Shown here piece after piece: positions 95 through 58,793 of a DNA stretch of 64,000 bases; the stretch's first letter is position 1, and every line of letters starts with the position of its first letter. A program made the position numbers and the translations under genes. Location of the stretch: the sequence record NC_041936.1; one strand, 5' to 3'. Source of the stretch: Escherichia phage ECD7. A model generated the notes under the pieces. It was not told the DNA's origin. It saw only the letters and a list, made by a program, of their open reading frames with translations, and made no database searches.

Positions 95-919
95 TTACCA
101 TCCTCGCTCTTTACCAATCAAAAATTCAACTTCACGACGTTTAATGTCTTCTTGAAGGTCTTTAATCTTCTGTCGATCTTGCATGATTTCATCCATCTTG
201 TCAAGTGCCGCAATGAAATCATCGAAACGTTCAAAGGTTTTACCTTCATTTGCTTCGCCAAATTTAACCATTGTCAGGCCGTAACGACTACTAAACAGAC
301 GTTTCAACTGTCCAACGATCTTAGAATCAGTGGTTATAACTTCCAATTCTTCTACTTCACGAAAGAATTTTCTATCAGAATCAATAAACCAGCTAGTTCC
401 TTTATGGTCTCTATCTTCGGTTGCGCTCATTAGAGTATGGTCTTTACCATCAATTTCAATTACATCAATTTGCCCACATGGACTAACATTTTTAACAGTA
501 AAAGGTCTATAATTTATTGCTCGTGCAATAACATAATTAAGGTTAGATACGTTTTCAGCATAATGGCAGAAGTCGGTCATAGCATTCGCATCTTTCCAAG
601 TATAAGTTTTACCAACTTCCCATTTCTGGGGAACTTCTTCAACTTCACGAAAGAATTTTCTATCGAATGGACTAAAGAAATATGTTGCCGTCCAAATGTC
701 TTTTCCTGTAGCAGTTTTCGCCGTATGATAAACACCGTCTAGCTCTATTGCATCAATCCAACCGTTACCCTCGATCTCGATGATGGTAAATGGCTTGTCA
801 CCAATAGCTGCACTGATATCGCTGTTAAGTGGAGAAAGAACACCTTCTCCGTTAGTAATAAACTCAGTTTTAGCGTTTTCGTCTTTCCAGGTGTAAGTTT
901 TACCAATTTCCCATTTCAT
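95..919 (-). CDS. hypothetical protein with two tandem copies of a KWExGKTY...DRKFFREV module
   Basis: ORF track 274 aa; internal repeat (MKWEIGKTYTWKD...FDRKFFREVEE and QKWEVGKTYTWKD...SDRKFFREVEE); paralogous to the next two genes. Confidence 0.55.
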   Translation of the reverse strand: MKWEIGKTYTWKDENAKTEFITNGEGVLSPLNSDISAAIGDKPFTIIEIEGNGWIDAIELDGVYHTAKTATGKDIWTATYFFSPFDRKFFREVEEVPQKWEVGKTYTWKDANAMTDFCHYAENVSNLNYVIARAINYRPFTVKNVSPCGQIDVIEIDGKDHTLMSATEDRDHKGTSWFIDSDRKFFREVEELEVITTDSKIVGQLKRLFSSRYGLTMVKFGEANEGKTFERFDDFIAALDKMDEIMQDRQKIKDLQEDIKRREVEFLIGKERGW

Positions 920-1958: not shown

Positions 1959-2468
1959 TCAAATAATTTTCACTGGAATACTATTAACAATCTTGTATTG
2001 TACTTGATTGTCAGACCCCCGCCACGGCTTCTTCGTTGGCATATCTTTAATATAACGCCCATCGATGAACATGTCAACTGATTCTACAATTTTTCTTTGC
2101 TCATCATTCAATTGGTCAAGGGTATAACCGGACCATAGCCAAATATCTTTATTTGGCATCCATGATTTTACTTCATCGATGATCCGCTGTACACCCTTTA
2201 AATTGCGTTTATACAGTGGATCGCCACCTAAGAATGTTAGCCCCTGAATAAAATCAGGTCTAAGCAGATCCAGAATCAATCCCATTGTATCATCGGTGAA
2301 TGGTTCCCCGTTCTTAGGATTGAGTAGGCTAGCATTAAAGCAACCATCACATGCGTGTGAACATCCGGTAACGTAAAGGGAGACTCTCACTCCCTCACCG
2401 TTAACCATATCACAATCTTTAATATCGGCATAGCGTAGTTTGCCGTATGTATCAGAACTCATATTCAA
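1959..2468 (-). CDS. nrdG: anaerobic ribonucleotide reductase activating protein (radical SAM)
   Basis: 169 aa; Cys cluster GCSHACDGC of the radical-SAM activase type; immediately downstream of nrdD as in T4. Confidence 0.85.
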   Translation of the reverse strand: MNMSSDTYGKLRYADIKDCDMVNGEGVRVSLYVTGCSHACDGCFNASLLNPKNGEPFTDDTMGLILDLLRPDFIQGLTFLGGDPLYKRNLKGVQRIIDEVKSWMPNKDIWLWSGYTLDQLNDEQRKIVESVDMFIDGRYIKDMPTKKPWRGSDNQVQYKIVNSIPVKII

Positions 2469-2604
2469 TTACCCCGAACTCGTTTACAATCTGCGCTTTA
2501 TAGTAACCACCGCGAGATGCTAATAGATAAGCTGGGCTTAGGTATTCGTATTCACGGATTTCTACTTGTGCGTTTTCAGTTTCCCAAATCAGTAAAGTCC
2601 ACAT
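2452..2604 (-). CDS. small hypothetical protein (about 50 aa)
   Basis: ORF 2452..2679 trimmed to the internal Met preceded by AGGAGAATCAAAT and lying downstream of the promoter at 2647-2675. Confidence 0.35.
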   Translation of the reverse strand: MWTLLIWETENAQVEIREYEYLSPAYLLASRGGYYKAQIVNEFGVIEYEF

Positions 2605-2646
2605 ATTTGATTCTCCTGTAAAGTTGTATCTCGTCTTGATGAATAT

Positions 2647-2675
2647 AGTATAGGGGATCTCGCGATCCCCGTCAA
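2647..2675 (-). promoter_or_regulatory. early sigma70-like promoter TTGACG-17-TATACT with palindromic spacer (GGGATC..GATCCC)
   Basis: Hexamers and spacing read on the minus strand; anchored to the ATG at 2679; followed by leader and SD AGGAGAATCAAAT. Confidence 0.5.
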
Positions 2676-2679
2676 GCAT

Positions 2680-3228
2680 TTATTTTAAATTTTTTCGAAT
2701 GTATTCAGACCATTCCTTCCCTGTCATTTCGGACCCGTTCTGGAAACTGAAATATTCATACGGCATCGAGTCAAGATAAAACAGGATCATACATCGCGCC
2801 ATATAATACCAATCACGATTAAAGTAAACTACGTTATCACCAGTACCATCAACCCCTTTATCATAACCATCGCGGGTACGGGCGACCCATTGAATAGTAT
2901 CATTTTTCTCGCGGATCGTAACAGGTTCCCAATATCCAGCACATCCAGCATGACCACACAAACAAGTCAGGAAATATTGACCTTTTGCTTTGTTGTCATC
3001 CCATTCACGATGGATTGGTTCGATCTCGTGAAACAGTGCTAAGCAATCATGATTATGCAACACTGGCTTACCATCAATCAATGCATGGAATGTATACAAA
3101 CGACCAGTAGACAAATAGCTATCCTCACGCTCAACCAGTTCAATAGCAATCTTTTTAGCTCGTTCTTTGTGTCGTTGTGCTTTACGCTTACGGTTTAATG
3201 ATTTCATATTCACCTCACACATTATCAA
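2680..3228 (-). CDS. hypothetical protein
   Basis: ORF track 182 aa; no recognised motif. Confidence 0.5.
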   Translation of the reverse strand: MIMCEVNMKSLNRKRKAQRHKERAKKIAIELVEREDSYLSTGRLYTFHALIDGKPVLHNHDCLALFHEIEPIHREWDDNKAKGQYFLTCLCGHAGCAGYWEPVTIREKNDTIQWVARTRDGYDKGVDGTGDNVVYFNRDWYYMARCMILFYLDSMPYEYFSFQNGSEMTGKEWSEYIRKNLK

Positions 3229-3770
3229 AGGTCGCGATATAGTACATTATGAAAATGAGAACTTGCATTACCAATATTGTAGATAATAAATTCTTCATCC
3301 GGCGCTTGCGCTACAAATTGAGTATGAGCAACCGCCACAACCTTAAAAATACGATCCGTGATCTTGTGTTTAATTTCGGCTCCTACTTCCATAGGAACAT
3401 ATTCATGTGTTTCTGTTTCAGTCGCAAAACAGCCATCTTCTTCATAAGCACGAACAAATCGATCGCAATCAGTACGCTTAACAAATTCAAGAGTATACAA
3501 TTCTCGTGAATTGTCGGTATAGACTAATACAGAATTATTCTGATAGCGAATCACATACAGGTTATTATCATCGTCAATTACGCAAAAGCTACGGATTTGT
3601 GTTCCTTCGCCTTTACTCCAGCAGATATTAACCACAGTTCCTCTAATAAAAAAACTTTCCTTTAAATTAAAACTAGCCAATGTGCTAGCGTGCATTTTAA
3701 CAACAACACCATCGCCAATTTCCAGTTTACGAAGTTTAACTTCTTTGCTCAGTACACAAAACATCATCAT
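3225..3770 (-). CDS. hypothetical protein
   Basis: ORF track 181 aa; promoter and SD upstream; ATGATGATG start. Confidence 0.5.
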   Translation of the reverse strand: MMMFCVLSKEVKLRKLEIGDGVVVKMHASTLASFNLKESFFIRGTVVNICWSKGEGTQIRSFCVIDDDNNLYVIRYQNNSVLVYTDNSRELYTLEFVKRTDCDRFVRAYEEDGCFATETETHEYVPMEVGAEIKHKITDRIFKVVAVAHTQFVAQAPDEEFIIYNIGNASSHFHNVLYRDL

Positions 3771-11671: not shown

Positions 11672-11700
11672 ATTATATGATAACCGCATTTTCATGTCAA
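11672..11700 (-). promoter_or_regulatory. early promoter TTGACA-17-TATAAT with dyad ATGCGGT/ACCGCAT around the -10
   Basis: Consensus hexamers; leader GAGGATTATATT-ATG. Confidence 0.55.
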
Positions 11701-50475: not shown

Positions 50476-52244
50476 TGATTGAACAATTAAACATCCACGA
50501 GATCCCACATGTTGACGGTGTACCAAGCGAAGGACAGCACCGTATTAACTGGATCAAGAATGGCGAATGTTTAAGCGCAGCAACGACACAGACGGGCAAT
50601 GACGGGACGCTTAACCGCGCCCCGGTTGCAATTCAAGAAAACGTTGCACGCGTAAACGAAAACGCAAAATCAACCGTCGCTAAAGTTAACGAGGTTGTAA
50701 CGGCGGTTAACGATATTAAAACAACTTTAGGGGTAATTTCTGACGGAAGTATCATTGATGTGGTTAACCAGACTGTCGCAAAAGTTGAATCCGTCGAAGA
50801 GAACTTAGGAGAAACAGCAAGAACTCTGCAAACAACGGTAGACGCTGTATCAGAACTTAACATCAAGATTGGTGATCGCCCCGCTGCCGATCCGAGCACA
50901 AGAACAATCTATGATGACATTTCTTTCATCAAACAAGAAATGGGTTCTTATCCTAACTTTAATATCAATGGTTCCCCTGATGCTGGCAGTTCCGGTTCTG
51001 GCATCAAATACCGAGTTATTCAGAATACCGCAGCATTAAATGACCACGGTCGCCGAATCATTCAGCTTGAAAACGACTGGCAAGATTCTGACGTAGGCGA
51101 GTTAACAAGACAAGTTAACAAAATGCGCAGTGAGATCGGCGACACGTCTCTTGCAACACAAGAAAATGTGTATGTTCGTCTCCGCACCAACGCAAGAAAC
51201 ATTGCTAACTTATCAAACGAAGTTCTAGAAGTCAAGAAAGCAATTTTGTTTGATTCAATCCCTGATATCGGGACTAAAGTCACTACGCTGGGAACTAATT
51301 ATGAACGTCTAAACAATGATGTTAATGGTGTAGATTCCGGTATTCGTCCTCGTCTTCTGGCTGTCGAGAATAAGATCGGAACGCCTCAATCGGCTGGAAG
51401 CATTGACTATCGATTAACCAACACAGAGCGAGAATTTTTAGATCTTAAACAGGTTGTTGGTGTAAGCGGTGCTGACGGTTTGCGCGGTGAAGTTGTTCGA
51501 CTTTCCAATGAGATTGGCACTGACAGCGATCGACATACTCTAGCCGGACGTATTAAAGTTGTAGAAAACACTCAGGGTCGGTTAGAAGCAAGCGTACAGG
51601 ACATGGAACAGATTGTAGGTGATCGCGAATCAGGTTTGACCGCTGGCGTTATTAAACTATCAAGTGATATCTATGGCGATGATGGTTCAGAAGATCCATT
51701 TACTCAGAAAGGCGTGATTAAAATCGTCAAAGAGCTACAAACATCTAACGGAAACAAAGTAGATGATGTACCTGATGACGGTTTCCATTATCTGCGTAAG
51801 CGCGGAGAATGGGTGCAAGTTGCATATGCTGCTGGAGCATTTAAAAATACCGCAGATATTACGGTTGAACTTGACGAACAGGATGTTTATAAACCGATTC
51901 CGCTAAACGATATGACCGAAGAAGTTCCTGCGCGTGGAATGGTTAAGAGCGAATCTCTTGTTACGGTTAACGACAAAGGATTATTCCGTTGTGATTTCCG
52001 TTGTTCTGTAAATGCGGCACATAACGCTACTTTCGTAGTCGGTATTGCTAAAAATGGTCTGATTGTACATGAGGTACGAAATGGTCATTATGGAGCTGAT
52101 GATTTAATTAGCTATTCTACCAGTGCTTTCCTAAATATTGAAAAGGGCGACCGGATCGATATTCGCATTAAGGGCGTATCCGAAGAAGCATTAGCGCAAC
52201 AGCTACAAATTAAAGAGTTCCTCTTTGGGATTTCTCCGGTATAA
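50475..52244 (+). CDS. wac: fibritin (whisker/neck fibre) with extra C-terminal domain
   Basis: 589 aa; N-terminus VDGVPSEGQHRINWIKNGE as in T4 wac; foldon-like YLRKRGEWVQV followed by about 140 additional residues. Confidence 0.85.
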   Translation: MIEQLNIHEIPHVDGVPSEGQHRINWIKNGECLSAATTQTGNDGTLNRAPVAIQENVARVNENAKSTVAKVNEVVTAVNDIKTTLGVISDGSIIDVVNQTVAKVESVEENLGETARTLQTTVDAVSELNIKIGDRPAADPSTRTIYDDISFIKQEMGSYPNFNINGSPDAGSSGSGIKYRVIQNTAALNDHGRRIIQLENDWQDSDVGELTRQVNKMRSEIGDTSLATQENVYVRLRTNARNIANLSNEVLEVKKAILFDSIPDIGTKVTTLGTNYERLNNDVNGVDSGIRPRLLAVENKIGTPQSAGSIDYRLTNTEREFLDLKQVVGVSGADGLRGEVVRLSNEIGTDSDRHTLAGRIKVVENTQGRLEASVQDMEQIVGDRESGLTAGVIKLSSDIYGDDGSEDPFTQKGVIKIVKELQTSNGNKVDDVPDDGFHYLRKRGEWVQVAYAAGAFKNTADITVELDEQDVYKPIPLNDMTEEVPARGMVKSESLVTVNDKGLFRCDFRCSVNAAHNATFVVGIAKNGLIVHEVRNGHYGADDLISYSTSAFLNIEKGDRIDIRIKGVSEEALAQQLQIKEFLFGISPV

Positions 52245-52251
52245 GAAATTA

Positions 52252-52278
52252 AAGGGGCGTTAAGCCCCTTTTTCGTTT
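52252..52278 (+). terminator. rho-independent terminator after wac
   Basis: Hairpin GGGGC-gttaa-GCCCC + TTTTTCGTTT. Confidence 0.55.
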
Positions 52279-52290
52279 ATAGGTGATATT

Positions 52291-53223
52291 ATGTCAGGAT
52301 ATGTAACAAATAACCCAAGAGAATTAAAAGACGCTATTCTGCGTCGTTTAGGCGCACCAGTAATTAACGTAGAAGTAACAGAAGACCAGATTTACGATTG
52401 TATTCAGAGAGCATTAGAACTCTATGGGGAATATCATTTCGATGGTGTGAATAAAGGATATAAAGTATTTCGTGTTAGTGCAGAGCAAGCTCAACACGGG
52501 GTATTTGATTTGAGCGATTCTGGAGTATTCGCAGTAACTAAAATAATTCGAACAAACGTAGGTAGCGCGGCTACGATGGATGGCACTGCCGTTTATCCGT
52601 GGTTTACTGACTTTCTGTTGGGTTTAGCTGGTGTAAATGGCGGTTTAGGATCTGGCTGTAGTAAATTTTATGGTCCAAATGCAATGGGCGGTGATCTAGG
52701 ATATTTCGAACAGCTTATGAGCTATCGAGCCACTATGCAAAATATGCTCAATCCGCTTCCAGACTATTGGTATAATAGCGCAAACGGACAACTTAAGATA
52801 ACAGGAAACTTCCGAGAAGGTGATCTCATTGTTGTTGAATTATATGTTAAAAGCTATGTAGACGTTCCTGATATGATCGGCGCGGTTGCTGGTTATGCTC
52901 ATGCTGGAGGATGTTCTACCGCTGGCGGGATTAGCGCCGTTTATGATAATCCAACTGCTGGTTTAAGCGGGATTGTTGCTGGCATGGGACCGATCAGTGA
53001 GAACAAGCAGGGCGCATATAATAACCGTTGGGTTAAAGACATGGCAACCGCTTTCACTAAGGAGGTGTGGGGGTCCATCATGGCTAAACATCAAGGTCTG
53101 CAATTACCCGGCGGTGTCACTGTTGATGGTATCCGAATCATTGAAGAAGCACGCGCCGACATTGAGAAATTGCGACAAGAACTAGAATTATTAGATCCTC
53201 CGTTCGGCATCCTCATGATTTGA
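52291..53223 (+). CDS. 13: neck protein gp13
   Basis: 310 aa (T4 gp13 is about 309 aa); synteny. Confidence 0.8.
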
Positions 53224-53232
53224 TTAAATGTG

Positions 53233-53275
53233 TTGACTAATATGTTCTCGTTAGTGTATGATCTGACGAGAACAT
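53233..53275 (+). promoter_or_regulatory. sigma70-like promoter (TTGACT...TATGAT) embedded in a 10-bp stem-loop ATGTTCTCGT/ACGAGAACAT upstream of the GIY-YIG gene
   Basis: Inverted repeat with the -10 in the loop; SD AAGGAG; same promoter-plus-stem-loop architecture as the early-region cassettes. Confidence 0.45.
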
Positions 53276-53289
53276 AAAAGGAGAATCAT

Positions 53290-53874
53290 ATGGCATATTA
53301 TTATCTATATCAAATAACAAATAATTTAAATGGGATGGTCTATGTTGGTATGAGAACGTCCAAAAAACCAATAGAAAAGGATTCTTATTGGGGGAGCGGA
53401 AAACGAATTAAAAGAGCAATAAAAAAGTATGGAATAGAGAACTTCACAAAAACTATTCTTTCCACACACAACACGTTAGAAGAACTAGCTTTAGCAGAAA
53501 AAAAGATAGTGACTAAGGAATTTGTAGAAAGAGAAGATACATATAATATTGCTCTGGGTGGAGTGAATAGAGGTTCTTTGTGGGATGACATGGACGAAGA
53601 AACAAAAAATGAAGCAAGAAGAAAAATATCTGAAAAAGCATCCAGTCGAAAAAGAGAATCTCACTCAGACGAGACTAAAAATAAAATGAGTCAATCGGCA
53701 AAAAATAGAAAGAGAGATTGGGAAAATTTTAAAGGCGCAAGAAAAATTATGGCAGAAGGTGTTCTATACCTAACCACTCAAGAATGTTGTAGAAAGTATG
53801 GGATATCAGCCGCTTCTATGAGGAAACGAGTAAAGTCAACCGCAGAAAAATGGAAGGAGTTTTATTATGTTTGA
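53290..53874 (+). CDS. free-standing GIY-YIG homing endonuclease (Seg/I-TevI-like)
   Basis: 194 aa; N-terminal [23 protein letters not shown]...[16 protein letters not shown]...EELALAEKK fits the GIY-(x10)-YIG, Arg, Glu layout; AT-rich; between genes 13 and 14. Confidence 0.8.
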
Positions 53875-54619
53875 CTCTACATTATTTGCCAGATTGGAGT
53901 CACAGAAGGATTATGAGAACACTAGACAAACAGAAATTCTCAATCCTTATGTGAATTTCAATTCACATACAAATACACAAACTCTAGCCGATATTATGGT
54001 TGCCGAGTCTATACAAATGCGCGGCGTCGAGATGTACTACATACCGAGAGAATTTGTTAAACCTGATATGATATTTGGGGAGGACGTACAAAGCAAATTC
54101 ACTAAGGCGTGGAAGTTTGCAGCGTACATAAATTCTTTCGATGGGTATGAGGGTGCTGGCAATTTCTTTCAATCTTTCGGTTATACCGCTAATGATGAAT
54201 TAACCATAACCATAAATCCAAATTTATTCAAACATCAAGTAGACAACCAAGAGCCTAAATCCGGCGATTTGTTTTACATTCCTATGAGCAACGATTTATT
54301 CGAAATCTCATACGTCGAGCCATATCAGCCGTTTTTTCAGGCTGGCAAAAATGCCATGCGTAAAATTATTGCAGAGAAATTCGTGTATAGCGGCGAGGAA
54401 TTGCGACCAGAATTACAACGCAATGATGGAATTAATGTTGATGAGTTTGCGGATCTGGATCTTGCACCGATCACTAATCTGGACGGGTTAACAGATATCA
54501 ACTTAGATCAGTACAAAGAAGATAAGCAATTCAGAAGCGAAGGACAAGATTTTATTGATCCGTTTGATCCTATTAATGCAAGGGTTCACCTTTCGCCGAT
54601 TTTTGATAAATACTCATAA
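53867..54619 (+). CDS. 14: neck protein gp14
   Basis: 250 aa (T4 gp14 is about 256 aa); synteny. Confidence 0.8.
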
Positions 54620-54632
54620 ACAAGGGGGTCAA

Positions 54633-55466
54633 ATGTTCGGTTGGCACTATAATTCGTCAATTAGACGGTATATTGTATTGCTGGGTAATTTATTCTCCGG
54701 CGTACAAATTAAAAGGGTGCGTAGCGACGGTGAGCGTTTTATTAAAGTTCCTATCACCTACGCAAAGAAAGAAAAATTCATGATGAGTCTGGACAAATAT
54801 AACAACATCTCAAGTGAGGAAGACGTAGCAAAGGTAGAAACTATTTTACCGCGTATGTGTCTTTCTTTGATTGATATGACATACGCCCAGAACTTTAAAA
54901 CAAATATTGCAAATAAGACAGTACCAAAATATACGGCTGATGGAATCAGGAGCATAACACAATATAACCCTGTACCATATAAGTTTACTTTCGAGTTAGG
55001 GATTTATACGCGTAACGAAGATGATATGTTTCAGATAATTGAACAGATTCTTCCTTACTTCCAGCCTCATTTTAACTGTAAGATTAAAGAACTACACGGT
55101 AATGATGTATGGATTGATCGAGATATTCAGGTCACAATTAGTTCTATTACTCCAGATGAACAGGTAGGCGAAGATAAGTTTTCTCGTCGTCGTCTTGAGT
55201 GGACCATTATGTTCGAATTTATCGGGTTTATATATCCTCCAGCTACCGACGTTAAGGGGGAAATCAGAACGATTTATCTTGATTTTCATGCCAATTCTCG
55301 TGAATTGAATCCTAGCGGTAATTTTGAATCAGTGGATCACGAGGTCGTTAAACGTGACGTCGAGCAAGAAGAATGGGATGGAACAATCAAAGAATCATAT
55401 TCTAGTGATATTCCAATACCAGTTGCACCGACCCCACCGGGTCCACGTATTGTAAGAGAATTTTAA
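54633..55466 (+). CDS. 15: tail sheath stabiliser / tail terminator gp15
   Basis: ORF 54555..55466 trimmed to MFGWHYNSS downstream of the gp14 stop; 278 aa (T4 gp15 is about 272 aa). Confidence 0.8.
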   Translation: MFGWHYNSSIRRYIVLLGNLFSGVQIKRVRSDGERFIKVPITYAKKEKFMMSLDKYNNISSEEDVAKVETILPRMCLSLIDMTYAQNFKTNIANKTVPKYTADGIRSITQYNPVPYKFTFELGIYTRNEDDMFQIIEQILPYFQPHFNCKIKELHGNDVWIDRDIQVTISSITPDEQVGEDKFSRRRLEWTIMFEFIGFIYPPATDVKGEIRTIYLDFHANSRELNPSGNFESVDHEVVKRDVEQEEWDGTIKESYSSDIPIPVAPTPPGPRIVREF

Positions 55467-55479
55467 GAGGTAATTTATT

Positions 55480-58793
<3,314 letters not shown>

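Follow-up and report, generated by a model that had tools for sequence, protein, structure and literature searches.

The 64,000-nucleotide (nt) stretch of DNA from Escherichia phage ECD7 analysed here (sequence record NC_041936.1; hereafter the window) carries an open reading frame (ORF) of 194 codons for a GIY-YIG homing endonuclease between the neck genes 13 and 14. Directly upstream of this ORF lies a hairpin with promoter-like hexamers, an element of the type termed PeSL (promoter-early stem-loop). The gene wac is found upstream of gene 13, and gene 15 downstream of gene 14; Escherichia phages Phi1 and kvi, of the genus Krischvirus (RB49 group), match this region at 98.6% identity. An earlier reading made from the sequence alone had described a 194-residue, AT-rich ORF between genes 13 and 14 whose 3' end overlaps the gene 14 start. 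All of this was found: the GC content of the ORF is 0.34, below both the 0.404 of the window and the 0.436 of gene 13, and there is an 8-nt overlap between its stop codon and the gene 14 ATG (ATGTTTGA). The locus (Table 1) is probably occupied by a Seg-type homing cassette, made up of a PeSL early promoter, a Shine-Dalgarno (SD) sequence, the 194-residue endonuclease, and the gene 14 ribosome-binding site (RBS) and start within the 3' codons, and lodged in the Krischvirus 13/14 spacer.

Table 1. Features of the gene 13/14 locus and of the sequences compared with it (positions of the 64,000-nt window, + strand unless stated; aa, residues of the endonuclease; L004 to L007, compared genomes, to which the positions in the last four rows refer)
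Feature	Position	Strand	Remarks
Gene 13 (neck / head-tail adaptor)	52291-53223	+	Upstream flank; gp13 matches PHROG 211, head-tail adaptor, E 4e-40
66-nt spacer, the PeSL part of the inserted block	53224-53289	+	Replaces the 36-nt spacer of endonuclease-less genomes
-35-like hexamer TTGACT	53233-53238	+	From promoter scan
Hairpin	53241-53276	+	Arms 53241-53254 and 53263-53276; 14 bp with one G.U; 8-nt loop
-10-like hexamer TATGAT	53257-53262	+	In the hairpin loop
Endonuclease SD, AAGGAG	53278-53283	+	6 nt 5' of the ATG; 1 nt past the hairpin base
Endonuclease gene	53290-53874	+	194 aa, ATG start; Seg-like GIY-YIG homing endonuclease
GIY-YIG domain	aa ~1-95
Helical linker	aa ~100-147		With one NUMOD3-like repeat
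Helix-turn-helix	aa ~148-191		I-TevI-like
Gene 14 SD, AAGGAG	53854-53859	+	Inside the endonuclease 3' end, codons W-K-E; E26 has the same 3' junction
Gene 14 (neck / head closure)	53867-54619	+	Downstream flank; gp14 matches Pfam T4_neck-protein, E 9e-101
Gene 14 nt 1-135	53867-54001	+	Only in endonuclease-carrying genomes
Gene 14 first 450 nt, endonuclease-linked haplotype	53867-54316	+	24% diverged from RB49
Compared GIY-YIG gene of E26 (L004)	2434-3391
Compared GIY-YIG gene of Makalu_002 (L005)	2434-3338
Compared GIY-YIG gene of G37-3 (L007)	1234-1895
Compared GIY-YIG gene of JSE (L006)	1161-1956

The endonuclease gene itself is not new. At the protein level, it matches the annotated 'homing endonuclease [Escherichia phage ECD7]' at 100% identity and SegC of Phi1 at 99%. 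The Phi1 gene segC (phi1p149.1, ABR24660) is the same gene at the same site, with the same PeSL and the same 8-nt overlap, from which the window differs by 4 nt and 2 aa; the homing endonuclease genes of ECD7, kvi and phiS also represent this gene at this site, with 99-100% protein identity. In Arbiol et al. 2010 (PMC2839356), segC of Phi1 is among seven Phi1 genes missing from RB49, and Petrov et al. 2010 (PMC2993671) give the number of seg-like genes as one in phi-1 and zero in RB49. Both the gene and the PeSL type were already published or annotated in 2010, and the annotation itself adds nothing. The linkage of segC to a PeSL, the anatomy of the junction and the linked gene 14 haplotype were not found spelled out in the searched text of the two papers.

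The ORF is confirmed as a free-standing GIY-YIG endonuclease of the Seg/I-TevI type. It scores 29.5 bits against the Pfam SegE_GIY-YIG model (cut-off 25) and matches PHROG 314, 'homing endonuclease', with an E value of 6e-46. The C-terminal 83 residues match the solved DNA-binding domain of I-TevI (1i3j; E 1e-4) over a stretch that spans the 'HSDxTKxKxS' minor-groove helix, a NUMOD3-like repeat, and the helix-turn-helix; a sub-threshold match to the Pfam I-TevI DNA-binding domain covers residues 148-191. A profile built from 46 homologues matches the catalytic domain of I-TevI (1ln0/1mk0; E 8e-4). The AlphaFold (AF2) model has predicted local distance difference test (pLDDT) values of 96-98 across the first 90 residues, and a Foldseek search of the PDB returned I-TevI catalytic domains as its top three matches (probability 1.00, TM 0.61-0.64), all others having E > 2. 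The sequence-only reading had called the protein a GIY-YIG endonuclease, and the comparison with the Seg and I-TevI families, by Pfam, PHROG, profile and structure alike, fits that call.

The residues that characterize the family are also in place. The GIY-YIG strand pair is represented by YLY (residues 5-7) and VYVG (residues 17-20). The residues invariant in the alignment of 46 homologues are Y7, Y18, G20, Y33-G35-S36-G37, E70, Y85-N86 and G90-G91; all are present here. Of these, Y7, Y18, G20, Y33-G-S-G, E70 and N86 are shared with SegC of T4, which Edgell, Gibb and Belfort count among the experimentally active endonucleases in their review (PMC2988022). Y7, Y18 and G20 align to Y6, Y17 and G19 of I-TevI, and N86 aligns to N90, with E70 one residue off E75 in the hidden Markov model (HMM) alignment. 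None of the four database copies of the gene is disrupted; their differences from the window amount to 3-4 nt and 1-2 aa. The protein is predicted to cleave DNA.

Among T4 proteins, SegC is the best match (35% identity over 97% of the length), with the same motif set and overall domain layout; unlike the window protein, it contains no clear NUMOD3 repeat. Both genes are free-standing and overlap the gene downstream. T4 segC is located between 5.1 and 5.3/5.4, whereas the window gene is located at 13/14, and the T4 gene is described as a promoter-less cassette with a 20-bp overlap with its upstream ORF (PMC2988022). The window protein is closer to the Seg-like proteins of Krischvirus (39-47%) and to metagenomic proteins (up to 49%) than to T4 SegC. 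Given the 35% identity, the different locus and the promoter-like element of its own, orthology with T4 SegC was rejected, and 'SegC' is to be regarded as a best-hit label. The likeness to I-TevI lies in the two-domain design joined by a linker, with the catalytic fold (1mk0/1ln0) at one end and the minor-groove helix and helix-turn-helix (1i3j) at the C-terminal end. In contrast to I-TevI, which resides in the td intron of T4, the window gene is not in an intron, and its product has neither the zinc finger nor the R27 helix. I-TevI is produced late in infection, its late promoters lying within a hairpin by which the RBS is sequestered; the window gene has a putative early promoter of the sigma-70 type, and its RBS lies just outside the stem.

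The distribution of the gene was surveyed in 56 related records. The sequence-only reading had proposed a check of presence or absence at the 13/14 junction in relatives, and the junction proved to be polymorphic: 41 of the 56 records are empty, and four carry the window-type cassette (Phi1 in two records, kvi and phiS), so that the gene is not universal. The remaining junctions are occupied by other GIY-YIG genes, namely one of ~298 aa in E26 (1/56), one of 271 aa in the Makalu_002 type (7/56) and one of 214 aa in the G37-3 type (3/56). A fifth GIY-YIG gene is found between genes 14 and 15 in JSE-type phages. The four other proteins of the neck locus are 29-47% identical to the window protein, and each has a junction of its own. 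To judge from these genomes, the 13/14/15 neck junctions of Krischvirus are a hot spot on which at least five different GIY-YIG genes have landed.

The four carriers show signs of recent movement. Their endonuclease genes differ from one another at 1-4 of 585 nt (0.2-0.7%), compared with 21-38 of 933 nt (2.3-4.1%) for gene 13, which differs among the carriers as much as it does between the carriers and RB49 (Fisher p 0.02 to 1e-7 for endonuclease versus gene 13 divergence). The carriers are also assigned to different species: kvi belongs to Krischvirus RB49 and Phi1 to K. georgiaone, and RB49 itself is without the gene. Spread by recombination fits this pattern better than vertical descent does. 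The gene could instead be a resident relic of one sub-lineage, domesticated or no longer mobile, in which case the patchy distribution would reflect losses; the relic might have been retained for the RBS and start that its 3' end supplies to gene 14, or for the exclusion of competing phages. Only three distinct sequenced phages and the window carry the cassette, and the position of the gene 14 SD and ATG inside the endonuclease gene means that a clean deletion needs a precise replacement. The junction of pEJ01, which is empty beside a carrier-type gene 14 segment (nt 136-450), could be such a loss. However, a cassette that is 5-20 times less diverged than gene 13 among its carriers, and that sits on the backbones of different species while being absent from RB49, is hard to square with old vertical inheritance, and every copy has an uninterrupted ORF with the complete set of family-invariant residues. 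A relic is therefore considered unlikely.

The anatomy of the junction supports a mobile homing cassette that includes the PeSL. In endonuclease-less genomes (RB49, pEJ01 and most others), genes 13 and 14 are separated by a 36-nt spacer, TGA-TTTATTGGGGGAGTATTCCCCCATTTGGAGTAACAT-ATG, which contains a G5/C5 hairpin (GGGGGAGTATTCCCCC) just 5' of the gene 14 SD. In the carriers, the 3' end of gene 13 is the same as in the empty genomes through TGATT; next come the PeSL and the endonuclease gene, and gene 14 has a different start. The inserted block begins right after the gene 13 stop codon, and the PeSL is inside the indel. E26 and the window share an identical 3' junction (AAATGGAAGGAGTTTTATTATGTTTGA). 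The other types differ: in the Makalu type, the insertion lies 5' of the resident hairpin, which is retained, and in the G37-3 type the gene begins within the resident hairpin. The sequence-only reading had suggested that the endonuclease gene and the cassette move as one unit. The position of the PeSL in the inserted block, its uniqueness to this gene and the presence of a homologous PeSL in E26 favor this suggestion, and movement as one unit is the preferred reading.

The two ends of the inserted block differ in what accompanies them. Over nt 1-450 of gene 14, the carrier sequence differs from RB49 at 110 positions, most of them synonymous, with only 15 amino-acid changes, whereas gene 13 and the remainder of gene 14 differ from RB49 by only 1-2%. 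In phages without this endonuclease, identity to the 450-nt patch is at most ~77-78%, except in pEJ01 (94.8%) and Makalu_002 (83.1%). At least three haplotypes, 20-24% apart, exist for nt 1-450 and have been reshuffled between strains; all converge at nt 450, and from nt 451 the strains are nearly identical. JSE has patches of its own. In pEJ01 (L002 2470-2920), nt 1-135 are of the RB49 type and nt 136-450 are identical to the carrier haplotype, beside an empty junction. This could reflect either loss of the endonuclease or conversion of the cleavage-site region without the gene, as described for SegG. A search for a donor of the patch failed: beyond the mosaics pEJ01 and Makalu_002, the nearest sequences are 77-78% identical and occur in many phages. 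Import of the whole 450-nt patch with the endonuclease was also considered, and it is weakened by the sharing of parts of the patch by pEJ01 and Makalu_002 without the gene. The gene 14 mosaic is the product to be expected of repeated repair of endonuclease-induced breaks, which is an interpretation and not a proof.

The element upstream of the endonuclease gene was examined as a candidate promoter. The hexamers TTGACT and TATGAT are separated by 18 nt and match the consensus at 10 of 12 positions. The inverted repeat has 14 nt per arm with one G.T pair; 11 bp of it are perfect, and the stem includes GTTCTCG/CGAGAAC. The folded RNA of this region reaches -24.5 kcal/mol (z = -4.9), which none of 200 shuffled sequences equalled. 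The sequence-only reading had placed TTGACT...TATGAT within a 10-bp perfect inverted repeat; the -10 hexamer is indeed in the loop, and the repeat is longer than described. It had also likened the arrangement to the promoter-plus-stem-loop cassettes of the early region, and the same architecture was seen in minus-strand counterparts there (2-30 kb; for example at 11700, 8475, 27074 and 6330), where the -10 box lies in or beside the hairpin loop. Derivation of the PeSL from a resident early-region PeSL was rejected, since its stem has no counterpart elsewhere: no second copy of GTTCTCG...CGAGAAC was found in the window, and none without this gene in 50,697 phage records. On the minus strand, a further sigma-70-like match, TTGATA-17-TATGAT (53313-53285; 10/12), overlaps the endonuclease start and is directed into gene 13; in DNA so rich in A and T, it probably arose by chance.

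E26 provides a second instance of the element. Its cassette has a homologous PeSL with the hexamers TTTACA-17-TATAAT (11/12) at the same place relative to the stem. The core of the stem is the same as in the window, and two outer pairs are changed in a compensatory way (A-T and T-A to C-G and C-G). This covariation points to selection on the stem, although with two sequences it is anecdotal. The E26 protein is recorded as a 'hypothetical protein' of 311 aa whose annotated start lies inside its PeSL (L004 2456-2494); the true start is likely 13 codons downstream (MNHYVYKITN...), after an AGGAG SD, which gives a GIY-YIG endonuclease of ~298 aa that is unnamed in the record. The regions upstream of three genomic or metagenomic homologues (P0002, P0005 and P0014) contain no PeSL, and the promoter-hairpin is thus not a general trait of the protein family.

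The Makalu and G37-3 types have a promoter-like sequence of another origin. In both, TTGACT-16-TATACT occurs in the last codons of gene 13, made by a linked diverged patch. In Makalu_002 (L005 ~2390-2433) and G37-3 (L007 ~1190-1233), a change of ELELLD to ELLDLD together with synonymous changes creates this sequence, a sigma-70-like putative promoter for the downstream endonuclease gene. Since the window, E26, Makalu and G37-3 types each have a candidate promoter of the sigma-70 type, most neck-locus endonucleases of Krischvirus appear to bring one.

The hexamers could nonetheless be fortuitous, with the endonuclease being expressed only by late read-through and the hairpin serving just as an RNA element between the cistrons, for stability, processing or attenuation. 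Matches of 10/12 are common in this AT-rich DNA, endonuclease-less genomes also have a hairpin just before the next SD at this junction, and T4 provides no precedent, its segC being promoter-less and none of its endonucleases having an early promoter (PMC2988022). On the other hand, both hexamers are retained in E26, in an unchanged position with respect to the stem, and the Makalu and G37-3 types have their own promoter-like sequence in the gene 13 end. On the + strand of the whole window, only five sites match at least 5/6 in each hexamer, and the endonuclease site is the only one with a hairpin. According to Arbiol et al. (PMC2839356), PeSL promoters of this phage group show very strong activity in reporters. 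It is the combination that makes the putative promoter stand out: it is intergenic, lies directly 5' of an SD, has its -10 hexamer in a hairpin loop and is conserved in E26. Fortuitous hexamers are regarded as rather unlikely.

Comparison with known PeSLs shows both agreement and difference. PeSLs were defined by Arbiol et al. 2010 (PMC2839356), who report promoter and terminator activity for PeSLs other than this one; for RB49 and Phi1, they have been treated in that study (52 PeSLs) and in Comeau et al. 2014. The window element resembles them in that sigma-70-like boxes and a stable stem-loop lie between the upstream stop codon and the downstream SD/ATG, beside a gene that differs between close relatives, and it is predicted to act as a promoter. 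It differs from them in its location in a conserved virion module and not in a hyperplastic region (the same study places a few PeSLs in core or virion modules), in its GTTCTCG/CGAGAAC stem in place of poly-G/poly-C, in the lack of a second flanking PeSL, and in the lack of similarity to other PeSLs that would enable recombination. It also has no U-tract and is followed by an essential late gene, and strong termination is unlikely.

These properties bear on the modular shuffling proposed by Arbiol et al., in which a PeSL-flanked module or mini-circle is inserted by recombination between PeSLs and endonuclease activity is irrelevant. The PeSL directly precedes the gene, a homologous PeSL precedes the E26 allele, and that study (PMC2839356) links 10 of the 14 ORFs that differ between Phi1 and RB49 to a contiguous PeSL. 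However, the empty site offers only the G5/C5 hairpin, with no -35/-10 hexamers and no similarity to the window PeSL, and the block has a single flanking PeSL, its 3' junction being within gene 14. The PeSL has no other copy in the window or in the 50,697 phage records, and hence no exchange partner. Four GIY-YIG genes with four different junctions in one spacer argue for targeting driven by the endonucleases. Shuffling through PeSLs is thus very unlikely to explain the insertion.

A homing cassette with an early promoter would operate as follows. Early in infection, host RNA polymerase would initiate at about 53269-53270, ~7 nt past the -10 hexamer and inside the 3' arm of the hairpin. With this start, the endonuclease mRNA would lack the hairpin and be translated; the leader of such a transcript is predicted to be unstructured (-3.3 kcal/mol, z = -0.5). 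In a mixed infection, and by analogy with SegF, SegG, SegE and SegB, the endonuclease would cut the empty allele within or close to the spacer and the 5' region of gene 14. By the same analogy, the carrier allele would be immune to cutting because it differs at that place; the carriers are without the 36-nt spacer, and their gene 14 departs from the empty allele at 34 of its first 135 nt. Recombinational repair would then copy the cassette, along with neighboring gene 14 sequence, into the genome that had been cut. Such copying is indicated indirectly by the presence/absence pattern, the uniformity of the cassette on diverged backbones and the linked gene 14 haplotype.

Late in infection, read-through RNA from gene 13 would contain the full hairpin, 1 nt before the SD. 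A function of the hairpin as an intrinsic terminator is unlikely: the stem is followed by AUAAAAGGAG instead of a U-tract, and there is no TATAAATA to restart transcription of gene 14. Sequestration of the RBS in the manner of I-TevI or mobE is unsupported, as pairing that reaches the SD is only weak and interrupted. With no U-tract, and no late-promoter consensus between the hairpin and gene 14, read-through should continue into this essential gene. The late hairpin probably stands in for the resident inter-cistronic hairpin and, more speculatively, may damp late translation of the endonuclease; alternatively, it may protect mRNA ends. An Rfam search of 52000-55000 found no known RNA family (the sole match, E 0.43, is a chance one). 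Between wac and gene 13, at 52251-52271, lies a strong bidirectional terminator-like hairpin (AAAGGGGCGTTAAGCCCCTTT followed by a T run), with no TATAAATA after it, and the late-promoter consensus does not occur anywhere between 45736 and 58786. Late transcription of genes 13-15 is therefore not obvious from consensus scans.

Similar to the window gene, segG, segF and segE of T4 and seg43(25) of Aeromonas phage 25 are free-standing GIY-YIG genes between conserved genes, with linked flanks of the donor type. For SegG, the expression signals of the essential downstream gene are also within the endonuclease gene. A very stable hairpin located just upstream of the RBS, but not covering it, has been noted for seg43(25) and left unexplained (PMC2988022). 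For these endonucleases, cleavage sites and marker exclusion have been measured, whereas the window gene is known from its sequence.

Several observations weigh against an active homing cassette of this kind. The helix that bears R27 in I-TevI is replaced by a short loop throughout the subfamily, T4 SegC included, and the alignment contains no invariant Arg column. At position 22, 36 of the 46 homologues have H, 9 have R and 1 has K (R here, H22 in T4 SegC), and the catalytic Arg cannot be assigned from the alignment. The sequence-only reading had named a catalytic Arg and Glu: the Glu holds, with E70 invariant and all copies intact, but the Arg is not the equivalent of I-TevI R27, whose helix is absent. 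There is no hint of inactivation in this, as the active T4 SegC has the same R27-less arrangement. With respect to the flanks, mosaicism in the 5' half of gene 14 extends across the entire genus, and pEJ01 (nt 136-450) and Makalu_002 (nt 334-450) share the carrier type without the gene. The patch could thus be in part an independent polymorphism, with only nt 1-135 strictly linked, and no co-conversion tract was found on the gene 13 side. The 10/12 promoter match alone is within chance (11 sites in 6 kb, with 16.8 expected), and the hairpin has neither a U-tract nor clear sequestration of the SD. Finally, the literature searched yielded no cleavage, homing or transcript data on this gene.

A wider reading can be offered tentatively, as a possibility that we do not favor strongly. 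The Seg-type endonucleases of RB49-like phages may travel as 'promoter-armed' cassettes and be made immediately after infection, with the hairpin as an early/late switch. The sigma-70 early promoter would be a PeSL or would arise in the final codons of the upstream gene through a co-converted patch. The early mRNA, without the 5' arm of the hairpin, would be translated; in late read-through RNA, the hairpin would limit the endonuclease while transcription reaches gene 14. If so, some PeSLs would be mobile through linked endonucleases and not through recombination between PeSLs, and these genes would contrast with the homing endonucleases of T4, whose promoters are middle or late and never early (PMC2988022). 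The additions to earlier work are modest: a hot spot for five endonucleases, candidate promoter-armed cassettes, a uniform cassette across backbones and a mosaic gene 14. Nevertheless, the neck locus may serve as a compact natural system in which to ask whether endonucleases drive structural-gene mosaicism. It also raises the questions of why candidate early promoters occur here and never in T4, and what role is played by a hairpin just 5' of the RBS.

Two further observations concern the neighboring genes. At about 54578, near the 3' end of gene 14, the window lacks one base that is present in all five of the compared relatives (ATTAAT-GCAAGG versus ATTAATGGCAAGG). The last codons are frameshifted, and gp14 has 250 aa instead of 246 aa; the deletion is either genuine or due to a sequencing error in a G run. 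Gene 17, encoding the large terminase (55974-58790, + strand), specifies 938 aa here, compared with 607 aa in Phi1, RB49 and pEJ01, and has the same length in Makalu_002. In its product, Pfam places LAGLIDADG_3 at residues 364-422, and the Terminase_6N match begins only at residue 496. The arrangement suggests an intein that lies within the ATPase domain and contains a LAGLIDADG homing endonuclease.

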